NCBI GenBank assembly: GCA_036785375.1
Contig: JAWMAR010000023.1
Span: 4,030,001 to 4,094,000, forward strand
Direction of reading: 5' to 3'
DNA length: 64,000 nucleotides
Origin: Leucoraja ocellata
Lineage: Eukaryota
Part shown: positions 278-23,404 of the stretch, in pieces
Layout of the letters: each line of letters starts with the position of its first letter
Numbering within the stretch: the first letter of the stretch is position 1
Notes under the pieces: model-generated
What the model saw: only the letters and a program-made list of their open reading frames with translations
The model's database searches: none
What the model was told of the DNA's origin: nothing
Program-made: the position numbers and the translations under genes

Positions 278-1989
278 TCCTACTATTCTAATATCTAATA
301 TTCTAATATTTATTTTCTATTCTGTGCTGCAGTTGCATTGTCTTTTTTTGGGGGGAGTTATCAGAAAGTTATTGTCCTCCTTAACATATTCCACCGCTCA
401 CTGAGATTGCCGTAGTTTCATCCCAAACACAGAGAGGCTTCCAGAGAGTAGTTACTCCACCAGGAAAATGATCCCCCCAAAATCTTATATATATATATAT
501 ATATAATCTTGAAAACACCTGGTAATCTGATCTCATGACATTCCGTTGTATCAGACTCAGTGTGAAATACCAAAGAGAACTTTAGACAGAAAACCCGAGA
601 GGATTCCCTTGTGCACAATTAGCACGATTGGATGGAGCTCACAGTGGGGCGAGTGAGTGCATCTATTCATCCGCTGCTCAATGTACTGAGTGCGGGGTGA
701 TGATAAATGGAGACGTTGGTTCATCAGCAAACCCGGGGCCTGGCTGGGAGCGCTGCCATTTAGTGGTGTGGGAAAGGTAGAAATCGCTAATGACCGTAAC
801 GCGGAGTGTCTAAACGGTTGCGTCTTCCAGAGACAGCTGGCGTCTCTCCATTCACTGCATCCCGACCAACACACCCTCCTCCATCCCCCAACCCCTCCCT
901 CTCCGTCAGAAGAAACTCTCAGAGTCTGTGAACAATCTAAGCGATGTAACGCCGGCCTTTACGCTTGAAACTCTACCCACGGTCTCACCGAGGGCCGATG
1001 AATGAAAAACTACCCCTCACCCGCCAGACCTACTTCTCGAAGTTAGTTCTATAATCATAACATTAGCATTGGAAAACTTTACAGAATATTGGAAAGTTCA
1101 CACGTTAGTAACATCGCTTTCTTTCCCCTATGGTTTAGGAGATTTTCATTTATCTTTGTCGTGTGCGCCGAGGTAATGAAAGGCTTTGTTTAGCAAGCTA
1201 TCCAAACAGCTCAGATATATAGCATACATCAATGCAATCGGTTCATACTCCAATACCATAAATAGAGCAGAGGGGAAGATACACGGTGCAGGATTTGGTT
1301 CTCAGCATTGTAGCATGTTGGTGTGCATCAATTCCTCAGACAAAAGTCCATTGTCCTCAGTAGGGTAGCGGTGAATTGGACAATACCGAGCTTGACTTCG
1401 TGTATTATTGTTGATTGAATTACCTGCGAAGGCAATTCTCTTCAACGCTCTGGGTAGGTGAATTGTGGCGAGGTTGCCCCGTGACCAAGGTTGCTGAGCC
1501 AGTCCATTGTAGGGCTAATGTTACAGAGCTGGGGGGATCATCAATCACGGCAAAGCGTGGTTAATAACACACACCCGAATGACAATTGCAGGCATCAGTC
1601 ACCACAAACATGTAGAAAGTAACTTCAAAGCGTTCCCCGGCCAGGCTTTTCCAGATGAGGCTTTCACATGAGGAGCGGAGAATGTTGGAGGACGTTTGTT
1701 CTGCTAACACGGGCGACCAGTTCGCGGTGGGAAACTGGAGGGTGGCGAGGAGGAGGGAGAGAGAGAGTGCGGGTGCAGTGAGATTTCTGACCTTTCATTG
1801 AGCGATTCTCGCTTTTTGAAAGCTTCAAAAGGGAATACAGATTTTAAAATACTGAGAAAGCGAAGGCGATTCAATCAAGTTAGGCCAACCTAATTATTAA
1901 AAGGTGTCCAACCTAACTCAATCCAACACCAAAATGCTTTCGCAATGAGGAGCGGAGACTTGTGCGGGAACTTATGCCGGCTGTTGCCG

Positions 1990-2375
1990 GGCGGGAGGTG
2001 CTGTGAGATTCCTGAGCAGAAAATTGTGATTGTGTCAGGACATGGAGATGATTAGCACGGCGCTGGCTTTGAGCGCGGAGCGTGAAACGGATTTGCCATT
2101 TACTACAGAGCGAGAAATGAGCGTTGAATAGCATCCCCACTATGACACTGGCCGCCAGCCCCGACCGCCCTGACACCCGCACACACTCAGCACCACCAAT
2201 TTATCGCTTCATTTTCCGCTGCGGGAGGGTCACCGCCGCCCAAGATGCTGATCCTGACGGTGCGTTTCATTGTCGGCGCAGAAGCGAAACTGATCAAAGT
2301 TACACACAAGTATCTAACTGGAGACGGGCGGCGCTTTGGAGAAAGCAACATTCCGATATTGTTTCATGGAATCTT
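1990..2375 (+). repeat. Local duplicated non-coding island A, copy 1
   Basis: Near-identical to 12053-12395, 13678-14019 and the reverse complement of 19511-19890. Weaker similarity to the 19.5 kb copy extends left to ~1835. Confidence 0.92.
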
Positions 2376-2394
2376 TCCACATCCAGGGTGGAGT

Positions 2395-3715: not shown

Positions 3716-4879
3716 CATAAACCACGATGGTCGCAAACTCAACCCCCCCCCCCCCCCCCCCCCGCCCCCCTCTTTACTCCACCTTCAACAATATCCCAGA
3801 AGTAGAGAAGTTGAAACCTTCCTGCCCTATTACTACACACCGAGTGGCACCCACCATCCTCTCAGTCTGCGAGCGGGCAGCGTTCCCTCAAACCTATGTG
3901 GTCTCCCGGTCAAATCAAAAGGATTACATTTTCTACACGCCAGGCCAACGAGTAATAAAATAAGGTTTAGAAACACAACTTTCTGGAGTAACGAATTTCA
4001 GGCTCGTTCAGAATCGAATGCAGGCATCAGAGGTTGGAAGGGGTGGAAGATTGCAACCTTCACGTGGTCCGCCCTGTTTCGACTAATGCAATCAACTCGA
4101 CGTGCACAAACGGAAGATCAAATAGAACAAGTTGTCCAACGACTTTAGGCTGTGCACGCCACACGAAAGAAGAAGAAAACAAGCAGCATTTGATGAATCT
4201 TTCATTCAATCTATTGGAAAGATCCTGGCATGCTTGCATCTATTCTGCAAAGGTGGTGCCACACACGGTATAGATTCCCACTGGCTCTGTATCACCACCT
4301 GTATCATACAGTAGGCGACTACCCCGACCGCTCTGCCTCTTTCCCCTACCTCCTCCCGCGTTTACACCCAAGGCCTGGATTCAGCTGGCCTCTGCCTCCC
4401 GACTTGAGGTCACACAGTCACGGAGTTAGATAATTCGGAGACGGTTTACCGTTCCTTTCCCGCCATCTCCTCCAAACTTGGCATCATTTTTTCCCCATTC
4501 ACTTCACTTCCTTCGTTTTCCTTTTCATCCTCAAAATATAAATCACAACGAAGTCAATCACAAGAAACTCGTTAATATCCATCCTATCATTTAACAAAAG
4601 CGAGGCATCTCTCGTAAATGCTGCTTGTTTAGCGTTTTATGAAGGCGCTGCTCCCATAATAACCCATCGAATGATGCCCAGGAATCGCGTTCGATGCGAA
4701 TCCGCGACTCCCGCTTGCTGCGTTTAAATGAAAAAAAACTATAATCCGGCGCCGAATTGTACACTCCGCAATCTCTTTCCCGCTCTCAAAATGTACAACC
4801 TCACCACGTTTATCAAATGTGATGTTTTTTTTAATTTGCTAAAGCGACCTTCTTTCTGGCATGTCCCGCACTAACATTT

Positions 4880-8474: not shown

Positions 8475-9168
8475 CCGGAACTTTGCTCGGTATCTTTAAT
8501 CTCCCGGGCCAGATGTTCGCAACATCAGCCCACAACAACTGAAGGCAGCTCATGTTTAAGAATGAAGGCCGCTCACTTGATTTTAACTGCGCCTCAAAGA
8601 CAATGAAGTGTTTGTACCGGGCCGGCTACAACCTCGCTGCTGCCTCTTCACAGCCCCTTTCACTCTGTGCCCGCACCCAGTGTGATGTTAATGCGGCTCG
8701 TTGGGGCTTCCTCGCCCATTCACAACCCGACCCACCCTTTATGCCTCTAATCAAACTCGAGTGACTTAAACAAGCTCCGGGAGAGTCCATCGAGCTTGTG
8801 TTTGGTCTCCACTTTGTGTCAAAGGCCTGACGCGTGGCAACACGCTCCCGTTCCCCACTCGCCACTTTCCTCGCGGTATCCAGTGGATCGTGGCGAGATG
8901 CTGCCGCGTTGATTGCGCGTCCCGGGTGGCGACTTGTCCCTCCCCGTGGCCGCGGGGTTGGGGGCTGTGGGAGCTCAATGGCACGGAGGCGTTGCTGCGA
9001 TTTTCCTCGCTGCGAGGCGCCGTCCGCGCTGGAGGCTGTTGTCAGGGAACTGGGTCACATATAATATAGGCAACGGGGCCCCGCCGATTCGCTGCGGATC
9101 AGCAAATTGCTTCTTTTGTTCTGGGGGTTTCTTGCGGGAAAAAGAGCAAGAAGGAAACTGTTCTTTTG
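8475..9168 (+). repeat. Local duplicated CpG-rich island B, copy 1
   Basis: Near-identical reverse complement at 21209-21907; the differences are mostly 1-nt indels. Confidence 0.92.
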
Positions 9169-9509
9169 AATTGGGTAGAAGGCGAAAGTGACTCAGGTCT
9201 CAGCTAAATCACAACCGGTAGGGTGGGGGTGGGGGTGGGGGTGGGGATGGGGGTGGGGTGGAATATAGAGAAATCTGACGTTACTGTCTGGGTTACTGAT
9301 AGTGTCCACGCATTAATCGGGAGTTGGTTGGAAGCATAATGAATATTCATCACCTTAGAATATTGTTATAATGCCTAATTCCCTGCAAGGTCATTTCACC
9401 GAATCTACAATTGATTATTTTTGAACAACATTGCCTATATTGCATTGATTAAATGGAGGGACGTTGCTTACTAAAGGAATCCCACCTGTACTAACGGAGC
9501 GAGCATAGA

Positions 9510-9790
9510 ACAACGTTTGGAAGAATGCGAGGGACCTCATTGAAACTTATCCAATAGTGAAACGCCTGGATACAGTGAATGCCAAAGAGTCATAAAGTGA
9601 TACAGCGTGGAAACAGGCCCTTCGGCCCAACTTGCCCACATCGGCCAACATGCCCCAACTACTCTAGTCCAACCTACCCGCGTTTGGTCCATACTCCTCC
9701 AAATCTGCCCTAACAATATACTTGCCTAACTGTTTCTTTAACATTGGGATAGTCCCAGCCTCAATTCCCATCTGTGGCAGCTTGTTCCAT
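9510..9790. mobile_element. CR1-like fragments
   Basis: GGGACCTCATTGAAACTTA and GGAAACAGGCCCTTCGGCCCA tail motifs. Confidence 0.7.
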
Positions 9791-9829
9791 TTTTGACCGC
9801 GTTGAGGAGATCTAGTTGCCCAATCCCCT

Positions 9830-10186
9830 TTTTAAACGACTTAACACCGGGAGCAGCACGTGTGTTGGGTGGTAACTTATTCCTTGGGTGAAGGGAATAT
9901 TGGTAGCACAGTTTATTGAAATTTAGCGAGTTGATGATGTGGGGACCGTTTTTTTTGTCTTGTTTCATGGCAGTTGGTGCTCTGGGATGGCGGGAGATTT
10001 GATGGCGTGATTTTGTGAATCTCCTTGTATATTACAATAAGTCTTGGACCTGATTCTAGGGTATCCCATCCGAGCTCTAGGGTATCCCATCCGAGAGAAG
10101 TCAGCATATTATTCACGCTTGATTTGCGCTTGTGGTCATTACATACAAAGGGGGCTGCTCGACGTTGTACTCTCTCCAGGGTGATC

Positions 10187-10221
<35 letters not shown>

Positions 10222-10560
10222 GAAGGGATCCCATACGGCTCCACAATACTCCAATTTGGGGCTGGTCAAGGACTTGTGGGCATTATCTTCAATGGATGTA
10301 CTACATGCGTGAACATTTCTCTTGATAAGGCCGAGTTATATTTGTCTTGTTAGACACTTGATTAATAGGCGTCGCCCAACTTAAATCTTTGCTTAATTCG
10401 ACTCCTAGATATGGGTGATGGTCGACAGCAAGCAATGTATAGCTGCCCATGTTGTATTCTGATAAGGGTGGTTCGATCTTGAGTGAGACATGCATGGTAT
10501 GACATTTGGTTGTATGGAATGATATCTGCCAGGTTTTCCCCACTCACAGAGGGCATCCCG
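9830..10560 (-). mobile_element. Decayed LINE RT C-terminus (CR1/L2 superclade, not the local CR1 family)
   Basis: WQISFHTTKC..., HPYLGVELSKDLSWA..., PKLEYCGAVWDP..., LERVQRRAA.FV..., SSVNNMLTSLGWDTLE; contains (TTG)n at ~10187-10222 and a 21-bp tandem duplication at ~10055-10095. Confidence 0.8.
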
Positions 10561-10569
10561 ATCGAGGTT

Positions 10570-10970
10570 TGAGAGGAGGGGATGGGGGGATGGGGAGTGG
10601 GAGAGATGGGGAGAGGGGGAGAGGGGGAGAGGAGGGAGGGGAGATGGAGAGGGGGGGGGAGGTGGATTGGGGAGGGGGAGAGGGGTAGTGGGGGAGAGGG
10701 GGAGAGGGGGAGTGGGGAGGGGGTAGTGGGGGAGAGGGAAGAGGGAGAGGGGAAGTGTGGGAGAGGGGGAGTGGGGAGGGGGGGAGGGAGGGAGAGGGGG
10801 AGAGGGGGAGTGTGGGAGAGGGGGAGAGGGGAGTGGGGAGAGGGGAGGGGAGAGGGGGTAGAGGGGGGAGAGGGGGAGTGGGGAGAGAGGGGGAGGGGGG
10901 AGAGGGGAGAGGGGGAGTGGGGGAGAGAGGGGGAGGGGGGAGAGGGGGGAGGGGGGAGAGGGGGAGAGAT
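10570..10970 (+). repeat. Purine-rich GGGGAGA low-complexity tract
   Basis: ~400 bp almost entirely G/A on plus; source of the Pro/Ser-rich and Gly/Glu/Arg-rich spurious ORFs. Confidence 0.95.
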
Positions 10971-12557
10971 AGGGTCTACGAGAGAGGCGACGGTGAGGGA
11001 GGGGCAGCGACGGCCCAGGTGTAGTGCACCATCCTCGGGAGATGGAGCCCCCCGCCGGGAGGTGACCAATGGCCAGTTGCACTGAACTGCAGCGTGCGAT
11101 GCTCTCTGGGCTGCGGCCCGTCACTAAATCACAGCAATGACTGCACTTCAAGAGTACTTGACTGGTTGTAAAGGACGTCCAGGCGTTGTGAAGGGGGCTA
11201 TAGACATGCTAATTATTTCTCTATTAACATGTGTAGATATAAACAAGTGTCTTTTGACAGAAGTCAGCTAACGTGCACAGTGAAGCTTTCCACCGCATTT
11301 CGTCTCGTCTGCTGCTACCCCGATAAAAACAAGCCCTGGCGGCGGCTCTGCCATTCTAGGGGAGATCACCCCCTTAGAAAGTTCACACGTGATAGGATCA
11401 GAATTAGGCAATTCGGCCCATCAGGTGCACTCCGCCATTCAATCATGGGCGATGTATCTCTTCCTCCTTCACCTCATTCCCCTGCCTTCCACCCATAACC
11501 ACCGACACCTGTACTAATCAAGAATCTGCAAATATGTAAATATCCATTGACTTGGCCCCCACAGCCGCCTGTGGCAACGAATTCCACAGGTTTACCACCA
11601 TAATGTGAATGTGACCTTGCTTATTAATTGGTATCACAAACCATCTCCATTCTCGAAGATAGCCACAACGTGCTGCTGTAACTCAGCGGGTCAGGCAGCA
11701 TCTGTGGAGAAAAGAGATCTGCAGAGATGCTGCCCGACCCGCTGAGTTGCTCCAACATTTTACTGAATTTGCTGAGTAAGCAGAGCTTTTTGTGTCCATA
11801 TTGTAAACCAGCATCTGCAGTTCTCCGTCCTCGCCTTTGTTAATAGCAATGGCCTCGCGTCTTCATTAAATGCCCTGGAACTTTGCGATACCACCTGCTA
11901 TACCCGGAGTTCAGGCATTTCGCCAGACAAGGGGAGGGAGGGGGGTGCAGGTGGGGTACATAAGCGCACAACCCAGCGCCAACGGTATAGCTTCGAGGAG
12001 CAGTGCTAAATGTTTTCAAACAGCGAGAGCTGCTGCCGGGTGGCGGGGGGGCACTGTGAGATTCCTGAGCAGAAAATTGTGATTGTGTCAGGACATGGAG
12101 ATGATTAGCACGGCGCTGGCTTTGAGCGCGGAGCGTGAAACGGATTTGCCATTTACTACAGAGCAGGAAATGAGCGTTGAATAGCATCGCCACTATGCCA
12201 CTGGCCGCCAGCCCCGACCGCCCTGACACCCGCACACACTCAGCACCACCAATTTATCGCTTCATTTTCCGCTGCGGGAGGGTCACCGCCGCCCAAGATG
12301 CGTTTCATTTGTCGGCGCAGAAGCGAAACTGATCAAAGTTACACACAAGTATCTGACTAGAGACGGGCGGCGCTTTGGAGAAAGCAACATTCCGCCAATA
12401 TTCTGGCGAACCTCCACTGTGGCCTTTCCAAATCCTCCACGTCCTTCCTGTATTAATACTCCAAGTAAAACCGGAATAATACGACCATCGTGAGATTTGT
12501 GCTGTTGTTGTATTGAGTGAGATCCCTTTGATCTAGTGATGACTGCGGTGATGGGGA

Positions 12558-12757
12558 NNNNNNNNNNNNNNNNNNNNNNNNNNNNNNNNNNNNNNNNNNN
12601 NNNNNNNNNNNNNNNNNNNNNNNNNNNNNNNNNNNNNNNNNNNNNNNNNNNNNNNNNNNNNNNNNNNNNNNNNNNNNNNNNNNNNNNNNNNNNNNNNNNN
12701 NNNNNNNNNNNNNNNNNNNNNNNNNNNNNNNNNNNNNNNNNNNNNNNNNNNNNNNNN
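12558..12757. other. Assembly gap (200 N)
   Basis: Run of N; sequence 11144-12557 is repeated at 12758-14182. Confidence 0.99.
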
Positions 12758-13677
12758 CACTTCAAAGAGTACTTGACTGGTTGTAAAGGACGTCCATGCG
12801 TTGTGAAGGGGGCTATAGACATGCTAATTATTTCTCTATTAACATGTGTAGATATAAACAAGTGTCTTTTGACAGAAGTCAGCTAACGTGCACAGTGAAG
12901 CTTTCCCACCGCATTTCGTCTCGTCTGCTGCTACCCCGATAAAAACAAGCCCTGGCGGCGGCTCTGCCATTCTAGGGGAGATCACCCCTTAGAAAGTTCA
13001 CAAGTGATAGGATCAGAATTAGGCAATTCGGCCCATCAGGGTCCACTCCGCCATTCAATCATGGGCGATGTATCTCTTCCTCCTTCACCCCATTCCCCTG
13101 CCTTCCACTCATAACCACCGACACCTGTACTAATCAAGAATCTGCAAATATATAAATATCCATTGACTTGGCCCCCACAGCCGCCTGTGGCAACGAATTC
13201 CACGGGTTTACCACCATAATGTGAATGTGACCTTGCTTATTGATTGGTATCACAAACCATCTCCATTCTCGAAGATAGCCACAAAGTGCTGCTGTAACTC
13301 AGCGGGTCAGGCAGCATCTGTGGAGAAAAGAGATCTGTTGAGATGCTGCCCGACCCGCTGAGTTGCTCCAACATTTTACTGAATTTGATGAGTAAGCAGA
13401 GCTTTTTGTGTCCATATTGTAAACCAGCATCTGCAGTTCTCCGTCCTCGCCTTTGTTAATAGCAATGGCCTCGCGTCTTCATTAAATGCCCTGGAACTTT
13501 GCGATACCACCTGCTATACCCGGAGTTCAGGCATTTCGCCAGACAGGCGGAGGGGGGGGGAGGGGTACATAAGCGCACAACCCAGCGCCAACGGTATAGC
13601 TTCGAGGAGCAGTGCTAAATGTTTTCAAACAGCGAGAGCTGCTGCCGGGTGGGCGGGGGGGGGGGGGGGGGGGGGGG

Positions 13678-14019
13678 CACTGTGAGATTCCTGAGCAGAA
13701 AATTGTGATTGTGTCAGGACATGGAGATGATTAGCACGGCGCTGGCTTTGAGCGCGGAGCGTGAAACGGATTTGCCATTTACTACAGAGCGAGAAATGAG
13801 CGTTGAATAGCATCCCCACTATGACACTGGCCGCCAGCCCCGACCGCCCTGACACCCGCACACACTCGGCACCACCAATTTATCGCTTCATTTTCGCTGC
13901 GGGAGGGTCACCGCCGCCCAAGATGCGTTTCATTTGTCGGCGCAGAAGCGAAACTGATCAAAGTTACACACAAGTATCTGACTAGAGACGGGCGGCGCTT
14001 TGGAGAAAGCAACATTCCG
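13678..14019 (+). repeat. Island A, copy 2 (also duplicated at 12053-12395 across the gap)
   Basis: Same sequence CTGTGAGATTCCTGAGCAG...AAAGCAACATTCCG; lacks a 12-nt segment (TGATCCTGAC...) present in copies 1 and 3. Confidence 0.92.
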
Positions 14020-14460
14020 CCAATATTCTGGCGAACCTCCACTGTGGCCTTTCCAAATCCTCCACGTCCTTCCTGTATTAATACTCCAAGTAAAACCGGA
14101 ATAATACGACCATCGTGAGATTTGTGCTGTTGTTGTATTGAGTGAGATCCCTTTGATCTAGTGATGACTGCGGTGATGGGGAGAGGAAGCAGGGATTGGC
14201 GATTAATGACTATTATCGTGTCAATGATTAACCGGACTCACCAATTATTCCCCTTCAGACAGTTTATGAAATGACACAATTGCCCAACAGGGGTGTCCAC
14301 GATCAATGCATTACAAAGGCTATTGGTGCTTTGTCCGTTTTATTGTTCGCACCTGACCCCGAACATTAAGTGTAACATAATGTGAGTCCACTGACGCTAG
14401 AATCCCCCCCAATCATTGCCCTTTATGTGGAGGATACTTCATGCAGACAGAGACCCGCCC

Positions 14461-15000
14461 TATAAAATACACAACCATCCGGTGAAACTCAGTGGCCCCA
14501 GAGAATATCGATTACAAAGTCATATACAGACATGAATTGTGAAGAAGGGTCGTCCATTCCTTGTTTCCAGAGATGCTGCCTGTCCCACTGTGTACTCCAG
14601 TTATTTGTGATTATCTTCCATATACAGACATGTTGCTCTGTGTCAGCTCAGCTTCTCATCTACAGCCATTGTCACGTTATCACCCCCCCCCCCCCCCCCG
14701 GAACACTCAGTATTTGACATCAGCTACCGTGGTTATCTGGGACTAGGGGCGTTTTCTATTGTGGCCACTGAATTCGAAAGAGTGAAAAATAATAATTTAT
14801 TTTTCAGACTCACCAAAGGCGATGCAGCTTTCTGTAACCTACCTTAAATCCCGCGGTTCTCTCCGAAACGTATCCATGTGTCTCTTCCTGCCGGCAGACG
14901 GTAACACCGGGTAATTTCACCAAGGATTCGGACACCGTCCCAATGTCTCGTCCCCGGTTCGCTGTGTGTTGTTATTCACGCTGCTCCCGGGAGGCCCTTG
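14461..15000 (+). pseudogene. Decayed hes/her-like pseudogene, tail-to-tail with hes3
   Basis: TATAAAA at 14461 and ATG at 14532, immediately interrupted by a Penelope-derived repeat. 14806-14869 reads RLTKGD/[frameshift]/QLSVTYLKSRGSLRN (cf. KLEKADILELSVKY of HES3 helix 2). After a polypyrimidine-AG acceptor at 14897 the phase-1 frame reads DGNTG*FHQGFGHRPNVS (cf. DGAAQYQAGFRSCLNAVS in the neighbouring gene). GGGAGGCCCTTG at 14989-15000 matches 10/12 nt of TGGAGGCCCTGG (WRPW). Helix 1 was not found. Confidence 0.55.
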
Positions 15001-15040
15001 AAATACTCGGCAACTTTGGAAGAGCGGTGTGCGTGGGCCA

Positions 15041-15357
15041 CTGGTCCAGAACCAGGGGTCACAGTCTTAGAATAAAGGGGAGGTCATTGAAGACTGAGGT
15101 GAGAAAAAAACGTTTTCACCCAGAGAGTTGTGAATTTATGGAATTCCCTGCCTCAGAGGGCAGTGGAGGCCAAATTACTGGATGGATTTAAGAGAGAGTT
15201 AGATAGAGCTCTAGGAGCTTGTGGAGTCATGGGATATGGGGAGAAGGCAGGCACGGGTTATTGATTGGGGACGATCAGCCATGATCACAATGAATGGCGG
15301 TGCTGGCTCGAAGGGCCGAATGGCCTCTTCGTGCACCTATTTTCTATGTTTCTATGT
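15041..15357 (+). mobile_element. CR1/HER1-like LINE 3' end
   Basis: TCCAGAACCAGGGGTCACAGT...; ends in TTTCTATGTTTCTATG. Confidence 0.88.
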
Positions 15358-15794
15358 TCTTCGTTTTTCGTGTAAAAAAATGCACTGTTTCGAAATTGTC
15401 TTTAGCTTTCTCTCGCTAAAAGATGCAGGGATGCCAGGTGAATTTTAGCAGCACGTGCGGCATTAAACACAGGGGACCTAATAGCACTAATCTGATAACT
15501 ATCTGATTTTAAAGTCACCACCTGTAGCCAGATTATTAATTGAGGTCGGTGGGTTACTTACACTGCGAGTGTGCCCTCTGATCGTGGAGAATATTAAATC
15601 ACACGCGTTGCTGGGGGAACTCAGCGGTTCAGGCGTCAAATGTAGAGGGAATGGACTGAGGTCGTTCGGGTCGCGATCCTTCTTCAGTCTGCCCATCCCT
15701 CCAGAGATGCTGCCTGACCCGCTGAGTTCCTCCGGAACTTCGTGTTTTGCTCAAAATTCCAACATCTTCTTGGTTTCCAAAAAGCTTTTGGAAA

Positions 15795-15968
15795 TATATA
15801 TTTAAGAGGGAGTTAGATGTGGCCCTTGTGGCTAAGGGGATCAGGGGGTATGGAGAGAAGGCAGGTACGGGATACTGAGTTGGATGATCAGCCATGATCA
15901 TATTGAATGGCGGTGCAGGCTCGAAGGGCCGAATGGCCGACTCCTGCACCTATTTTCCATGTTTCTAT
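15795..15968 (+). mobile_element. CR1/HER1-like LINE 3' end
   Basis: Reverse complement of the 2400-2575 tail. Confidence 0.85.
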
Positions 15969-16026
15969 AAGGATCTTAAGATAGGAAGGTTACAAAAGGC
16001 TTGAGACGGAATCTAAAGAAAAATCC

Positions 16027-16032
16027 TTTATT
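16027..16032 (-). terminator. Candidate polyadenylation signal of hes3
   Basis: First AATAAA seen on minus (plus-strand tttatt) downstream of the stop, ~430 nt after it, in an AT-rich patch. Confidence 0.5.
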
Positions 16033-16098
16033 CCTTCTAGATATAGAATTAATATTCCAACAATTTTCTTACAAAGCAGTTACATACACTTATATACA

Positions 16099-16415
16099 AA
16101 GAAGGGTCTCGACCCGAAACTTCACCCGTTCCTTCTATCCAGAGAAGGTACACAAAAAATGCTGGAGAAACTCAGCGGGTGCAGCAGCATCTATGGAGCG
16201 AAGGAAATAGGCAACGTTTCGGGACGAAACGTTGCCTATTTCCTTCGCTCCATAGATACTGCTGCACCCGCTGAGTTTCTCCAGCATTTTTTGTGTACCT
16301 TCGATTTTCCAGCATCTGCAGTTCCTTCTTAACACTTCTATTCAGAGATGCTGCCTGCCCCCGCCGAGCTACTCCAGCATTCTGGGTCTATCTTCAGCAT
16401 CTGCAGTTCATCCCC
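16099..16415. mobile_element. Nested Penelope-derived palindromic elements in predicted hes3 3'UTR
   Basis: A young fold-back (arms 16144-16221 and 16225-16302) inserted into an older copy, flanked by CTTCTATCCAGAGA (16132-16145) and CTTCTATTCAGAGA (16335-16348). Confidence 0.8.
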
Positions 16416-16461
16416 TCACTAGTTCAGTACACGCTATGCACAGCGCAGGGGGGTGAGAGAG

Positions 16462-18746
16462 CTACCAAGGCCGCCACAGCTGTTCCAAGTCAGGGGAGGC
16501 TACACGGTTGGCGGGGGGTTTAGTTTGGGCAGCGACGGGCGCTGCGTCCTGTTCTTGTGCGGGGGTCTCTGGGCTGGGATTTTCAGTCGCCGAGATGTCA
16601 GCTACTTGCTGCTGGATGCTGTGTCGAAGCGCGGAGGCGGCGGTGGTTTTGGCCTCGGGCCCACACAGCTCGCCTTGGGGCTGCGCCGCCGGATTGACGA
16701 GAAGCCGGCCTTCGTTTCGGCTGCCGCCGTCCACCGCGCCGAAGCCGGAGCCGGAGCCGGAGAAGACGGGGAAAGCGGTGACCAGGTGGTTGAGTACGCC
16801 CAGCCGCAGGTGCTCCTCGGTGCCCTTGCTCCGCAGCAGGTACTGGCTGACTGCGTTCAGGCAGCTCCTGAATCCCGCCTGGTACTGCGCCGCTCCGTCT
16901 CTCGACATCCGCACCGCCCCTAAACACACACACACACACAGTCAGGGCCACCGCGCCAACACCTCCACTTATACCCTGCGCATAACACGTCCCAACTTCA
17001 GAAGATAGACACAAGGTGCGAGTAACTAACTCATCGGGTCGGCCAAGCATCTCTGGAGAAAAGGAATAGGTGACGTTTCGGATCGAAACCGTTCGAAGAC
17101 TTCTCCAGAGATGCTGCCCGTCCCGCTGAGTTACCCCCCAGCTTTGTGTGTCTATCTTCGGTTTAAAGCAGCATCTACAGTACCTTCCTACACCAACTTC
17201 GCTAGGGGTGTCCGAGGTACACACACACTCTCTCCCCCCCCCCCCCCCCTCGGCTCTACCCACGTCCGCTCACGGGAAAGTTGAACATCCCAGATGCGTT
17301 AACACTCCTCCTGAAATCCTCTCTTCAAATCCAGGTTCTTCTGTTGGGACCATTCGGCCCAACTGCTCAACCCTCTCCCCATTACCTCCACCACCCAGCC
17401 CCTGCTGACAATTCCATTCCATCCCCGCTCCGCTTCCCCGGTTTAATCCAGGCACTCGCTGATCCGACCCCCTCTCTTTTCCTCCATCAGCGATTAATCC
17501 GGGCAGCCCCCTTTCGCCCTGCCGTGATTTTTCTTTAATCCCATTCAAAGAACCATTCACCCACCCCTCTCCTCCGACCCTCCACTGGCCGTATACACCG
17601 CCAACACATACCACCACCCCGCGCCAATGTCTGTGCTGAGATAACACTCACCCTGTCGAGAACTCTGCAAATCCCTCAGATGTTTCACGGTTAATTCCAG
17701 GATGTCGGCCTTTTCCAGTTTGCGTTTCCTAATCTGTGGCGTAAAAACGTGAAGGGAACAAATGAGAGGGGCAGGGGTACTGAGAAGGAAAGCACTCGAG
17801 AAAAAAAAACTCAACACAAAACACTGGCGGCGCAGCGGTAGAACTGCTGCCTAAGTTACAGCGCCAGAGATCCGGGTTCGATCCTGAGTAAGGGTCTGGA
17901 CACATCCCATCTTTCCAGAGAATCTGCCTGTCCCGCTGAGTTACTCCAGCGTGTTGTGTCTATCTTCTGACTACGGGTGCTGTCTGTGGGGAGTTCGCAC
18001 GTTCTCCTGTGACCCACATGGGTTTTCTCCAATATTTTCGGTATCCTCCCACACTCCAAAGACTTGGAGGTTAATTGCCTTGGTGTAAATCTAACTGGTC
18101 CCCAGTGTGTGCCAGATGGGGGTCGCTGGGCTGTGCGGAATCGGGGCCGAAGGGCCTCTTTCCGCGCTGTATCTCTAAACTAAACCAAACTAAACACTTG
18201 GGCAGAGTTGGCGCGGCGGCGGGAGGTTTGGGTCCTCACGTTATTAGAGTAGTGGTCTTCCAGCAACGACTTCAGCTGTTCCAGGCACTCGTTGATCCGA
18301 GCCCTTCTTTTTTTCTCCATCAGCGGCTTTGAAATCTGCAAACAACAAACACGTTACTTTCTTTGCAATTTCCACAAATCAACACGTCACAAATCGAAGA
18401 CAGACTCGACCCGAAACGTCGCCTATTTCCTTCGCTCCACAGATGCTGCCTCGCCCGCTGAGTTTCTCCAGCATTTTTATCTACCTCCAAAATAAGGCCG
18501 AATGAAGTAACTCAGTTGGAGTTACTCCAGCTCGCTGTGTCATTCTTTGGCACAACCCAGCATTTGCGGTTTATCTGCCCGTCTCGCTGAGTTACTCCAG
18601 CATGTTGTGCCTATCCGCAGTTCCTCCCGACACACTTCATAAATCGGCTAGATTCCAGCACATCTCTCACCCACCTTCCTGTGGCCGCAGGTTTGTGTGG
18701 CGACTGGGAGCAAGAACCGACCCGCCGGCTTGTTGGTATTTTTCAT
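16462..18746 (-). CDS. hes3: Hairy/Enhancer-of-split bHLH-Orange repressor, HES3-like (4 exons, 235 aa)
   Basis: Exons read on minus: 18746-18675 (MKNTNKPAGRFLLPVATQTCGHRK), 18335-18240 (ISKPLMEKKRRARINECLEQLKSLLEDHYSNN), 17733-17652 (IRKRKLEKADILELTVKHLRDLQSSRQ+G), 16919-16462 (Orange domain YQAGFRSCLNAVSQYL ... LEQLWRPW*). All introns are GT-AG with consistent phases; total 708 nt. The bHLH (LKSLLExHYS-IRKRKLEKADILEL) is the HES3/her3 type. Confidence 0.93.
17003..17192. mobile_element. Penelope-derived palindromic element in hes3 intron 3
   Basis: Imperfect inverted arms GATAGACACAA...TTGTGTGTCTATC of the same family. Confidence 0.7.
17826..18195 (+). mobile_element. HE1/V-SINE-like tRNA-derived SINE in hes3 intron 2 (with internal Penelope-derived insert)
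   Basis: A-box-like GGCGCAGCGGTAGA, B-box-like GGTTCGATCC, V-domain GGAGTTCGCACGTTCTCC..GTGAC, and LINE-like tail GGGCCGAAGGGCCT...(CTAAA)n. Confidence 0.85.
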
Positions 18747-18854
18747 TTCACACTCTTTTTTGATTCCCCTTATAGTTATGGGTTTTTTTCCTGGGTGCGC
18801 TTGCTCCGCAAGAACAGGTGAGCGGTGAAATAGTCGGGAGCGCCGTTGGCGAGG

Positions 18855-19140
18855 GGTTTATAAAGTATCGCCACTTTGCATGTGAATGCAAGGAGTCGCC
18901 GCTCCCCGCAGCTGCCCGCGCCCCATTGTAACGCCGGCAGAGAGAGAGATTCCTTCATCATTATTCCTCCCACTGGATTTGAAACACGGAGCTGATCTGC
19001 CAATGGTCAGTTGGTACTCTTTTGCATTAAGTGTTCCTTCCTTAAGGCCCTTGATAGGATTATTCTCCATTAATCAACGTCCAGCAAAACAAACAAGTCA
19101 TAACCAATTAATAATTGAAACACCAACTGATCAAAGACAA
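18855..19140 (-). promoter_or_regulatory. hes3 proximal promoter
   Basis: TATAAA at ~18857-18864, about 110 nt upstream of the ATG; octamer-like ATGCAAAG at 18874-18881 (minus); second ATGCAAA at 19021-19027; Sox-type CATTGT near 18923; TCF-type CTTTGATC near 19129-19136. Confidence 0.65.
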
Positions 19141-19264
19141 CGGGAGATTCTGTGCCCACCGTTAGAGGCGGAAAGAAGTGCGATTTAAAAAATATTGGAT
19201 TCAAATTCCCATAAGATTACTAAAATGGAAATTGGTGATTCTTGGTGCATGAACTTTTGCAAAT

Positions 19265-19485
19265 ACTTTTAGGAGAAGTGGGGAAGATTTAATAGGAATC
19301 CGAGGGGTAACTTTTTCACACAAAGGGTGGTTGGTGGGTGTATGGAACGAAATGCCAGAGGAGGTAGTTGAAGCAGTTTAAGATCTATTGCAATGTTTAA
19401 TAAACAGTTAGATACGTATGTGGAAAGGACATGTTTAGAGGGATATGGACAAGTTGGCAGAAGGGTTTGTTTCCACGCTGTATGC
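19265..19485 (+). mobile_element. CR1-like 3' fragment between hes3 promoter and island A
   Basis: AGATTTAATAGGAATCCGAGGGGTAACTTTTTCACACAAAGGGTGG, same family as 40570-40885. Confidence 0.8.
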
Positions 19486-19510
19486 TAAACGAGGTGCATC
19501 ATGAGAGGCA

Positions 19511-19890
19511 AAGATTCCATGAAACAATATCGGAATGTTGCGCCCGCCCGTCTCCAGTTAGATACTTGTGTGTAACTTTGATCAGTTTCGCTTCTGCGCC
19601 GACAAATGAAACGCATCGTCAGGATCAGCATCTTGGGCGGCGGTGACCCTCCCGCAGCGGAAAATGAAGCGATAAATTGGTGGTGCTGAGTGTGTGCGGG
19701 TGTCAGGGCGGTCGGGGCTGGCGGCCAGTGTCATAGTGGGGGATGCTATTCAACGCTCATTTCTCGCTCTGTAGTAAATGGCAAATCCGTTTCACGCTCC
19801 GCGCTCAAAGCCAGCGCCGTGCTAATCATCTCCATGTCCTGACACAATCACAATTTTCTGCTCAGGAATCTCACAGCACCTCCCGCCCGG
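19511..19890 (-). repeat. Island A, copy 3 (inverted), ~0.8 kb upstream of hes3; candidate enhancer
   Basis: Reverse complement of copy 1; contains TCF-type ATCAAAG and Sox-type ATTGT motifs. Confidence 0.9.
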
Positions 19891-20254
19891 CAACGGCCGG
19901 CATAAGTTCCCTCTCAACTCTGTTAACTGTCTCCGCTCCTCATTGGGAACGCGTTTTGGAGTTGGATTGGACACGTTTTAATAATTAGGTTGTCCTCATT
20001 TGATCGAATCACCCTGGCCCGGACTCGCATGACTCGTCTTCTGGTCCGGGCAGTTTAGCAGTCTTTTAAATCTGACATATAAACAGAATTGTGAAGTAAC
20101 TCCGCCACGATCGGATAATTGGCATTTCCGAAGGGGTTCATTTACTGTCCACACAATTAGACATTCTTCTGTTTATCGATAGTTTCCTGCGGGCGCTCTC
20201 GCGGCCGGAGAGAGACTTCCATCATCATGCACTGGAGCGCCGACATGCCCGGAG

Positions 20255-20478
20255 ATGAAGATAGATACAAAATGTTGGCGTAACTCAGTGAGTCAGGCAG
20301 CATCTCCAGAGAAAAGGAATAGATGACGTTTCGGGCCGAGACGCTTCATCAGACTGAAGAACGGTCTCCACCTGAAAATCACCCATTCCTTTTTTTACAG
20401 ATGCAGCCTGGCGCTCTGAATTACTCCAGCATTTTGTGTCTATCTTCGAATCAAAGCAGCATCTGTAGTTTCTTCCTG
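20255..20478. mobile_element. Penelope-derived palindromic element with back-to-back hammerhead-like cores
   Basis: Minus strand CTGATGAAGCGTCTCGGCCCGAAACGTC (20352->20325); plus strand CTGAAGAACGGTCTCCACCTGAAAATC (20354-20380). Confidence 0.7.
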
Positions 20479-21208
20479 TCCAGTGTTGAAAATGCATTCG
20501 CCTCGCTCCCCCAATAGTTAGAAACTCCCTTCTTTGCCAATCCCCTGGTTCATTGATCACCTCAGGAGGCGATCACTGATGTATCTCGGCTTTGTGTTGG
20601 ATCGACTGCCACAAGATCTTAGTCCCCCCCCCTCACTTTCCAGCCTCTGAATGATACCCCAGTCGCCTTCCTCTCGCCGGCAAAGGCAGAGGATAGATAA
20701 CGCGTTGAGACAGTTCTCCCTCTTGTCATTTTCCACTTTCCAGTTAAATACCGAATTACTCTCGAATCTATCAACTCTCTTCTACACCCCATCCCTGACT
20801 GGTGAAGCCCAGCGTGCCCTCCTTCGCCTTCAGGTGTCTTGAATCTTGAGTAAAACACAAGATTGTGCTGGAGGAATCGGCTCTGAGTTGTGACTTGAGG
20901 AAGTGCGTGCTCCAACGCTCAAAGTTTGGAACGAAGATCGGCACAAAATGCTGGAGTCACTCCGCGGACAGGCAGCATCTCTTGAGAGAAGGAATGAGTA
21001 ACGAATCAGGTCGAGATCCTTCTCATGGTACTTAGTATTGTACCATTACCCCACAGATGGGTCTCCAGAGATGCTGCCTCTGCCTCTGAGTTACTCCAGC
21101 GTTTTGTGTCAATTTTCGGTGCAAACCAGCAGTTCCTTTCGACAACAACATAGTTTTTTGAAACGGTTGTATTGAACTCGCTGGAAGGTGAAAGTGACTC
21201 TCGGGCTG

Positions 21209-21907
21209 TCAAAGAACAGTTTCCCTTCTTGCTCTTTTTTTCGCGCAAGAAACCCCCAGAACAAAAGAAGCAATTTGCTGATCCGCAGCGAATCGGCGGG
21301 GCCCCGTTGCCCATATTATATGTGACCCAGTTCCCTGACAACAGCCTCCAGCGCGGACGGCGCCTCGCAGCGAGGAAAATCGCAGCAACGCCTCCGTGCC
21401 ATTGAGCTCCCACAGCCCCCAACCCGCGGCCACGGGGAGGGACAAGGTCGCCACACGGGACGCGCAATCAACGCGGCTGCATCTCGCCACCGATCCACTG
21501 GATACCGCGAGGAAAGTGGCGAGTGGGGAACGGGAGCGTGTTGCCACGCGTCAGGCCTTTGACACAAAGTGGAGACCAAACACAAGCTCGATGGACTCTC
21601 CCGGAGCTTGTTTAAGTCACCTCGAGTTTGATTAGAGGCATAAAGGGTGGGTCGGGTGTGAATGGGCGAGGAAGCCCCAACGAGCCGCATTAACATCACA
21701 CTGGGTGCGGGCACAGAGTGAAAGGGGCTGTGAAGAGGCAGCAGCGAGGTTGTAGCCGGCCCGGTACAACACTTCATTGGTCTTTGGAGGGCAGCAAACA
21801 CCAAGCGAGGCGGCCTTCATTCTTAAACATGAGCTGCCTTCAGTTGTTGTGGGCTGGATGTTGCGACATCTGGTCCGGGAGATTAAAGATACCGAGCAAA
21901 GTTCCGG
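21209..21907 (-). repeat. Island B, copy 2 (inverted), ~2.5 kb upstream of hes3
   Basis: Reverse complement of 8475-9168; the ORF track shows matching spurious peptides on opposite strands. Confidence 0.92.
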
Positions 21908-23404
21908 GAGAGGGCCCATGTCCGCGGTCCTCCCCGCTGGAGGCAACATCCGCCTACATGCAGAAGTGCTGGAGAACTCAGCGGGTCCGGCAGCATCCAC
22001 GGAGGCAATGGATCTACGGCGTTCTCGGTGTCCATGCCCTTCCCAGATGCCACGCACCCGCTGAGTTCCTCCAGCAGTTTGTTTTTTACTCAAGGTTGCA
22101 GCATGCGAATGAATGAACGATGAAATCTTTAAGATCACATCTGACAAGGCACAATTAGATTTTTTGCTTATATACCCAAGGTATGCAAATTGTCGCCAGC
22201 TAAGGGCACTGACACGCTAGGCCCCCATTTGTTCTCCCCCCCAGCAGCGGGTCTACACTCCACGTGGGCCATTGTTTGGCACCACCCCACCCACTACCGG
22301 GTCCTCTCCAGACCACTCCGGTGGCACTGACCCAGGCCCCAGCTGCATGGTTCTGTCCTTGCGGGCTCTGACCTCCCATTGAGTTCTGCGCTTCATGTTA
22401 AATCTGCTTGTGATCTGATCAGCATCCTCACCCACTCCATGGCTCGCCGGGAAGCCTTTCCCGAACCCTCAATACAAATTAAGGATCTCTCCAAGTGTTT
22501 ACTGAAAAAAAAAATGACCATTATGACCATTGGTGCCCTCTGAAAGAATTACCCAATTCTTCCTGCAGTGGCATTTATCGAAGTTGAGACGTTGTGTTGT
22601 AGTTGTACAAGATTGGTGAGGCTGCACTTGTATTGTGGTCAGCTTTGGTCACCCTGCTTCGGGAAAGATGCCATTATGCTGGAAAGAGTGCAGAGAAGAT
22701 TTACGATAGTGCCAGGACCAAGGGCCTGAGCTACAGGGAAAGTTGTGGGCAGGCCAGGACTCTATTCAATGCAGCACAGGAGGCCGAGGGATGATCTTAC
22801 ATAGTTGTATAAAACAGCAAATCTTTTTTCCCAGGGTACGGGAAAAATCCCATCATAGGAAAACGATTTGCAATATAAGAAAGGCCTTGGGATTAAGTAT
22901 AACAGGAATTTATAGTCTTTCCCTTCAAATGTTCTCCCTACATACTCATATTGAGTTCAATCATTCACATAGTGTTAGTAAATATCATATGACCCATCTC
23001 CTGCAACATCTCGCCATGTATACAAAATCCACCCATATCCATACTGCCAGTCTATAATTTTTCTTCTGTTCAATATTGGCATTTCTCATTGCCCAGAAGC
23101 AGGAGGGATAATTCAGAAAGGAGAGAACCATCCCGGCTTCTTTCATGATCTGCAAAACCACCACTGGGGCAACACTTCAACAAGATCACTTACGTTACAC
23201 GACCAACACCTTCAGGGCATTGGGTTTGTGATGCAATAAATGCCAGCCTTGTTCTGGAGAAAGACAACTAGTTTCTTAATCCTGACACCAGATGACTGCT
23301 CATTTTAAATGAAATTTCCTTGCATTTTCTTCCTCCAGCATTTCAAACCCATGTGTAGTGTGCACGCAACCTCATGAACGACAAGCCTTCAGATTGTGAA
23401 ATAT

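Follow-up and report, generated by a model that had tools for sequence, protein, structure and literature searches.

A four-unit array of near-identical non-coding islands around hes3 in Leucoraja ocellata, with probable gene conversion among candidate regulatory elements

In this study, we analysed a non-coding repeat array around an intact hes3 gene of the skate Leucoraja ocellata, in a window of 64,000 nucleotides (nt) that covers positions 4,030,001 to 4,094,000 of the forward strand of contig JAWMAR010000023.1 (assembly GCA_036785375.1). Two non-coding islands, A and B, form four modules in one internal order, three of them in tandem and one inverted, which are present only at this locus and are multi-copy in four organisms. 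These B-then-A modules are likely cis-regulatory elements of hes3 that likely go back to old duplications of a whole hes regulatory unit and have likely stayed near-identical through non-allelic gene conversion, with selection preserving their cores. Judged from sequence comparison, we favour this combined reading, with appreciable doubt left.

Organization of the array

Islands A and B are arranged in four units, U1, U2 and U3 on the plus strand and U4 on the minus strand, and the island copies are numbered by unit below. The order is B then A throughout, with 1.2-2.9 kb from B to A in each unit when a doubled segment in U3 is counted once. U1 to U3 follow one another in tandem between hes3 and a gene that we take to be pank4, and the inverted U4 is located upstream of hes3. 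Left of the window lie B1 (G000:C23:4023425-4023933, +; C23 is the contig named above) and A1 (G000:C23:4025963-4026178, +). B2 (G000:C23:4029035-4029675, +) stands directly before the window and A2 at window positions 1865..2376 (+); all coordinates without prefix refer to the window. U3 comprises B3 (8475..9168, +), which is about 700 nt long and CpG-rich, and A3 (13668..14019, +), which lacks a 15-nt stretch found in A2 and A4. In U4, A4 (19510..20013, -; core 19544-19890) occupies 764-1267 nt and B4 (21209..21907, -) 2463-3161 nt upstream of the hes3 start codon. The outer part of A4 is common to A2 only.

When the complete genome (3.44 Gb) was searched, all five scored candidates for island A and all four for island B fell on this contig, within 4,023,425-4,051,907 (a span of about 29 kb), and no match to either island was found elsewhere. 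The first-pass annotation had described a two-copy mirror around hes3. Its two inverted pairs are real: in a self-alignment of the window, 8475-9166 matches 21907-21211 at 96.3% over 701 nt (B), and 13668-13995 matches 19888-19544 at 93.0% over 345 nt (A), the differences being mostly insertions or deletions (indels). The mirror itself has to be replaced by four units, three of them in tandem. Within the window, further copies of A are located at 1865-2376 and 12029-12394.

Similarity of the copies and divergence of the spacers

Overall, the island copies are 94-99.7% alike, with frame-breaking indels between them. Among U2 to U4, paralogues differ by 0.3-1.0% in A and by 0.6-0.8% in the core of B. 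Core substitutions amount to 1/331 columns (A2-A4), 3/315 (A2-A3) and 3/316 (A3-A4) for island A, and to 3/497 (B2-B3), 4/496 (B2-B4) and 3/495 (B3-B4) for island B. U1 is shorter and more distant (2-6%), with 9-13/215 substitutions in A and 9-11/~497 in B. Which pair is closest varies along the module: U2 and U4 in A, U3 and U4 in the 3' tail of B, and U2 and U3 in the 5' part of B, where B2 and B3 are identical at 144/145 positions and B4 is divergent. A2 and A4 have common extensions on both sides that A3 lacks, a 50-nt 3' tail is common to B3 and B4 and lacking in B2, and tracts of homology stop abruptly at places that differ from pair to pair. Such mosaic tracts with discordant nearest partners are expected from gene conversion.

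Outside the islands, the picture is that of the earlier observation that the spacers show little alignable similarity by eye, now extended to four units: none of 18 upstream, spacer and downstream comparisons, made after repeat masking, scored above background, and the best of them was equalled by 5/60 background scores. In simulations, this test detected blocks of 300-700 nt in 98-100% of cases at 0.5 substitutions per site and in 3-10% at 0.8. In two relatives, by contrast, an orthologous piece of spacer has retained about 97.7% identity. Because the spacers of the units are unalignable while this orthologous piece has changed so little, the units would be old.

The array in other organisms

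Twenty of 24 listed sequencing runs contained part of the stretch, and four of them (organisms A to D, from four studies) were compared as contigs over window positions 13400-22300. In 4/4 runs, contig depth relative to the median single-copy piece (medians from 4-8 listed pieces per run) was 3.3-4.9 fold for island A and 2.7-5.9 fold for island B. Bins within A4 and B4 had a depth of 11-134, and bins with pieces of short or long interspersed elements (SINEs or LINEs) reached up to 10^7. Contigs span both junctions of A4 in organism A and the 3' junction of A3 in organisms C and D. Contigs of organisms A and D depart from the reference at 21903, and one contig of organism C does so at 21262, where the B2-B4 alignment ends. 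Because of the multi-fold depth and the spanned junctions, the array is real and common to the four organisms. Five 1-nt indels of A4 and B4 are missing from the main contig path of every run, and they may be errors in the assembly consensus.

Organism A showed no substitution in its listed single-copy pieces, and non-coding single-copy pieces were 2.1%, 3.0% and 2.6% different in organisms B, C and D, respectively. Compared with the window, island A differed at 2/333 positions in organism B and at 2/278 in organism D, and island B at 6/494 in organism C, where organism A has 3 differences. The islands, with 0.6-1.2% against 2.1-3.0% in other non-coding DNA (Fisher p 0.02-0.08 per organism, tests not independent), have evolved between species at 0.2-0.4 of the flanking rate. 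If the spacers are homologous and have diverged by 0.5 substitutions per site or more, then at this relative rate selection alone predicts a difference of at least 9.5% between copies; the observed value is 0.3-1% (binomial P below 1e-9). In this comparison, which depends on spacer homology and on collapsed contigs, the likeness of the island paralogues greatly exceeds what would be predicted from age and constraint.

A T inserted after 21557 was found on the high-depth B contig of organisms C (105.9/105.9) and D (43.2/60.4) and was absent from organisms A and B and from all four assembly copies. Being present in organisms C and D in this way, it would be a variant common to at least two copies in one lineage. 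For the 15-nt indel at 19613, the main path is deleted in organisms A and C, and the stretch is present in organisms B and D.

Candidate function of the islands

Several sequence features were examined with respect to the function of islands A and B, which are likely enhancers. Their constraint between species, observed among close relatives, is like that of conserved non-coding elements. The observed/expected CpG ratio of the islands is 0.88-0.98, and they are situated inside a CpG-rich domain of 33 kb (0.71 versus 0.35-0.46 outside). Twelve classes of transcription-factor motifs, including Sox, Oct, TCF, RBPJ and homeodomain motifs, were scored, and none was enriched in A or B. A reading of the islands as RNA genes was rejected on the basis of zero Rfam matches in 84 kb and folding that was not better than that of shuffled sequences (z -1.45 to +0.72).

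In zebrafish, her3 is accompanied by two conserved regions, NCR-2 at -695 to -597 and NCR-1 at -3155 to -3032, which modulate Sox-dependent reporter activity (PMC12199784). A4 and B4 resemble NCR-2 and NCR-1 in position, as they precede the start codon of hes3 by 0.8-1.3 and 2.5-3.2 kb, respectively.

RBPJ sites were found in neither A nor B nor in the promoter-like segment described below, and are present in both hes5 promoters on another skate contig, C384. There, two intact hes5 genes with RBPJ sites face each other 28 kb apart (G000:C384:1444818-1473468) and share no islands; the only likeness to A or B near this pair is a 21-nt match. Inverted repeats of 623 and 782 nt (93-95%) with short spacers lie near the second hes5 gene.

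The segment and putative hes relic downstream of A3

A3 is followed by a single-copy promoter-like segment (14020..14551, +), whose TATA box, at 14461, is preceded at a distance of 12 nt by an octamer-like word; the segment also holds three TCF-type words. It differs at 2/562 positions in organism B, 6/602 in C and 9/598 in D, compared with 2.1-3.0% in other non-coding DNA (Fisher p 0.003, 0.004 and 0.13, respectively). This divergence of 0.4-1.5% between species is also lower than that of a piece of the hes3 promoter (3.1-3.4% in organisms C and D). Its conservation above that of neighbouring non-coding DNA suggests that the segment is still functional. No intact gene comes after it, yet activity as a promoter or enhancer is possible. 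A SINE with a target-site duplication of about 14 nt has inserted at 14521-14632, just downstream of the TATA box.

The first-pass annotation had placed a hes-like relic here and regarded it as a second gene that had died. At 14786..15043 (+), helix-2-like and Orange-like words indeed occur in order beside splice-like signals, as in a putative decayed bHLH-Orange remnant. The colinear score of this remnant against one skate hes5, chosen after inspection, was equalled by 3/3000 background windows. Two other queries gave p 0.06 and 0.40, alignments at the DNA level gave p 0.03-0.15, and the best motif has three letters different in organisms B, C and D. The hes3 profile did not detect the remnant, a broad hes5 profile of 72 sequences scored it at 0.2 bits, a value exceeded by no fewer than 16 unrelated stretches, and Pfam gave one chance match at E 0.1 in seven frames. 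Comparison with peptides from 12 paralogue loci and direct alignment of promoters and exons yielded nothing, and the best value in the protein atlas (0.77) was uninformative. A decayed hes gene at 14786-15043, hes3-like or hes5-like, is plausible in view of the ordered motifs, but with negative profiles it is not statistically established. The dead second gene is thus only weakly indicated, and the lack of RBPJ sites speaks against hes5-type regulation.

Behind A1 and A2, neither the hes3 profile nor the hes5 profile found a remnant. Downstream of A2, 28 nt at 4723-4751 resemble the start region of hes3 on the expected strand, but the p of 0.005 per 200-nt window loses its significance across 6 kb.

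The doubled segment at the assembly gap

A direct repeat of 1.43 kb (11144-12557 / 12758-14182, +) flanks a gap of 200 N at 12558-12757. Its arms differ by 25 substitutions and 7 indels in 1434 columns, and it doubles island A of U3 (12029-12394 and 13668-14019). Because many genes occur twice in the assembly, the A copy at 12029 is probably an artefact of two haplotypes that overlap at a scaffold join; a recent true tandem copy is the less favoured explanation. Among the sequences occurring twice are an ICMT-domain exon in inverted orientation, 177 kb apart (G000:C23:5543132 and 5720359), and several hes/hey genes (C29, C171, C101/C401, C10/C2795 and C27/C533), which suggests unpurged haplotypes or false duplications.

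hes3 and its neighbourhood

As placed by the first-pass annotation, hes3 lies on the minus strand (16462..18746), and it is intact. Its four exons (18746-18675, 18335-18240, 17733-17652 and 16919-16462) form an open frame of 235 amino acids with HLH (bHLH) and Orange matches and a C-terminal WRPW. Exon 4 has 95% identity to HES-3 of Amblyraja radiata and 38-49% to the other 12 matches; by sequence, the surviving gene is hes3, its nearest named relatives being HES-3. The promoter contains a Sox/Oct composite site followed after 11 nt by a TATA box (18857..18888, -). In intron 3, a 46-nt copy of part of exon 2 (17447-17492) has 89% identity to 18280-18325 on the same strand. In Heptranchias perlo, two gene models (P0005 and P0006), numbered separately and placed on a contig of equal length, are identical at 169/169 C-terminal residues, one of them without bHLH, and may represent a second copy of hes3 exon 4, an isoform or an assembly duplicate.

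A survey of the window with 130 kb upstream and 70 kb downstream (264 kb) revealed no second intact hes gene. To the left of U1, a minus-strand gene with Fumble and ARMT1-like domains has its first exon 3.4 kb from B1 and about 9.9 kb before the window; we name it pank4 from its domain architecture. Farther out, a gene with a glutamate-binding domain and a C2-domain gene, presumably plch2, are found on the left, and an ankyrin gene, presumably camta1, on the right. The ionotropic glutamate-binding-domain gene is compact, lies between the C2-domain gene and pank4 (G000:C23, about 3,965,000-3,975,500) and is kainate-binding-protein-like in our reading. The position next to pank4 matches that of the hes5.1 cluster, and no intact hes5 coding sequence was found at the locus.

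Discussion

We propose that the array arose by old duplications of whole units, each of which would have carried a B-then-A module and a gene. The genes formerly downstream of U1 to U3 would have decayed, and U3 keeps a constrained promoter-like segment and perhaps a remnant. Selection may have kept A and B so alike that they could still pair ectopically when the flanks had become too divergent to do so; conversion tracts would then be confined to the islands. Conversion would then pass new variants among the island copies, as might have happened with the T insertion after 21557. Potentially, the surviving gene receives input from copies on both sides, which would serve it as enhancers that are redundant or that set its dosage. 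The earlier suggestion of an old duplication with conversion on the islands thus holds insofar as local non-coding islands appear to be kept alike by conversion on top of selection. Its frame of a single inverted duplication with exchange from arm to arm is too narrow, as there are four units and the closest pairs are not confined to the mirror pair.

Several points weigh against this proposal. The homology of the spacers was not detected in 18 comparisons and is assumed from order and orientation. Run contigs follow a single majority path per island, so that copies are collapsed and alleles of individual copies are not separated. The four organisms are closely related (0-3.7% apart), and some of the island differences between species may be alleles of another copy, which would make the argument from rates weaker. 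Variants were listed for 40/269 substitutions and 12/93 indels, with none of the listed substitutions inside island A, and the one clean variant in common concerns a lone base within a short homopolymer. Furthermore, none of the 12 motif classes is enriched in the islands, the search for coding remnants downstream of A1 and A2 was negative, and pank4 is a possible target because B1 lies 3.4 kb from its start.

It is tempting to speculate further that the array represents the regulatory framework left over from an ancient hes cluster next to pank4, in which three genes are dead and four enhancer pairs are alive as a concerted multi-copy enhancer family that drives the last gene from both sides. 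Selection on short cores would then sustain conversion, which would sweep regulatory mutations through all copies. This extended version is put forward tentatively, and the sequences leave it less probable than not.

The main rival to conversion is a modular copy-and-paste process, in which A and B were copied separately into unrelated local sites shortly before these skates split, without an old unit duplication and with little conversion. We regard it as rather unlikely, although it would readily account for the undetectable homology in every spacer and flank and for copy ends that are abrupt and different per copy. The paralogue divergence of 0.3-1% is also close to the island rate over the age of these species, and U1 (2-6%) would simply be an older copy. 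However, at least six insertions would be needed, each rebuilding the B-then-A order in one orientation at 1.2-2.9 kb. The variant at 21557 differs between lineages in apparently most copies, and the constrained promoter-like segment behind A3 stands at the place expected for a gene; both count against this rival.

Purifying selection on each copy of old paralogous ultraconserved elements, with no exchange, is a further and quite unlikely explanation. The islands are more conserved than their flanks between species, paralogous conserved non-coding enhancers are known in vertebrates (PMC3595034), and the few island differences (2/333, 2/278 and 6/494), at mostly unlisted positions, could be alleles of copies. 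Selection of this kind, however, requires an island rate of about 0.012 of the neutral rate and hence about 0.2 species differences per 494 nt of B, whereas at least 3 differences were found in B beyond those shared with organism A. It also leaves the lineage-restricted insertion at 21557 and the pair-specific tract extensions unexplained.

Alternatively, the islands could be homogenised without being enhancers of hes3, as an RNA gene, a boundary, elements of the CpG domain or regulators of pank4. No motif is enriched, U1 is closer to pank4 than to hes3, and the enhancer reading is drawn from sequence. We nevertheless consider this improbable: RNA genes find no backing in Rfam or in folding, the island ends have no splice signals by inspection, and U4 is directly upstream of hes3 at distances like those of the conserved regions of zebrafish her3. 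Dispersed transposons or an assembly artefact, a danger in an assembly with many apparent haplotype duplicates, five possible consensus errors in A4 and B4 and a genome search that skips very common words, are very improbable and largely refuted, because just 5 and 4 matches exist, all of them local, read depth is 3-6 fold and not thousands, terminal repeats and target duplications are lacking at ends that differ per copy, the units have differing flanks unlike haplotype duplicates, and junctions are spanned in contigs, with only the doubling of A3 looking artefactual. The first-pass annotation had named high-copy dispersed transposons as a finding that would refute its view; the genome search gave no match to A or B outside this locus.

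Gene conversion among non-coding control sequences, as favoured here, has counterparts in other systems. Sex-chromosome palindromes have long, continuous arms that are kept near-identical by arm-to-arm conversion. The inverted skate pair is similar to them in this respect, but identity in the skate is limited to islands of 350 and 700 nt, and three of the four units are in tandem. In birds, duplicated mitochondrial control regions are 94-98% alike, with some parts homogenised and others degenerate (PMC7720580). As in the skate array, duplicated non-coding control sequences are thereby held near-identical. In contrast to these control regions, the skate array belongs to the nuclear genome, where four copies in both orientations adjoin a gene for a developmental transcription factor, and in each unit an unalignable spacer separates two islands.

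Paralogous elements resemble the skate array in that several copies of one non-coding block surround developmental genes; original work on amphioxus Irx-Sowah and on the hairy cluster reportedly belongs here. Paralogous conserved non-coding elements, known from vertebrates, are common, and the amphioxus Irx-Sowah elements are multi-copy with copy letters a-d (PMC3595034, PMC5010895, PMC6010424, PMC3342872; for Irx-Sowah PMC5010895). Such elements reportedly accompany surviving paralogous genes, whereas the skate has one intact hes gene in 264 kb and copies up to 99.7% alike.

The closest likeness in layout is that of zebrafish her3, which has two conserved blocks at similar upstream distances and a Sox/Pou site named SP (PMC12199784, PMC2858445, PMC2865518), with a promoter of Sox/Oct, 11 nt and TATA (PMC2858445). 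Unlike the skate array, her3 is described there with one pair of blocks, of 98 and 123 nt, and A and B show no enrichment of Sox/Oct motifs. With respect to genomic address, the hes5.1 cluster adjoins pank4 in bony vertebrates, with several hes5 genes in gar, chicken, gecko and frogs, and a gene named her3 is located near pank4 in elephant shark (PMC8320183). The skate locus shares this pank4-adjacent address but, unlike the hes5.1 cluster, has no intact hes5 and no RBPJ sites in A, B or the promoter-like segment.

Conclusions

Duplicated enhancers are usually expected to diverge or to vanish with their genes. Here, the structure of the array is observed directly, and conversion is likely, although its combination with the regulatory reading, drawn from sequence, is favoured only moderately. 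No description of the array was found in the literature searched; most subscription papers lie outside that literature, so that unpublished status is not implied. The process as such is known; this locus is set apart by its place in the nuclear genome and by its four units of two islands each, which lie in both orientations about a single surviving developmental gene. If the proposal is true, the locus would offer a clear example of concerted evolution that is confined to cis-elements in nuclear DNA with one surviving gene. Extreme similarity of non-coding sequences could then stem from conversion as well as from selection, and the locus would bear on the evolution of the hes3 and hes5 loci next to pank4.

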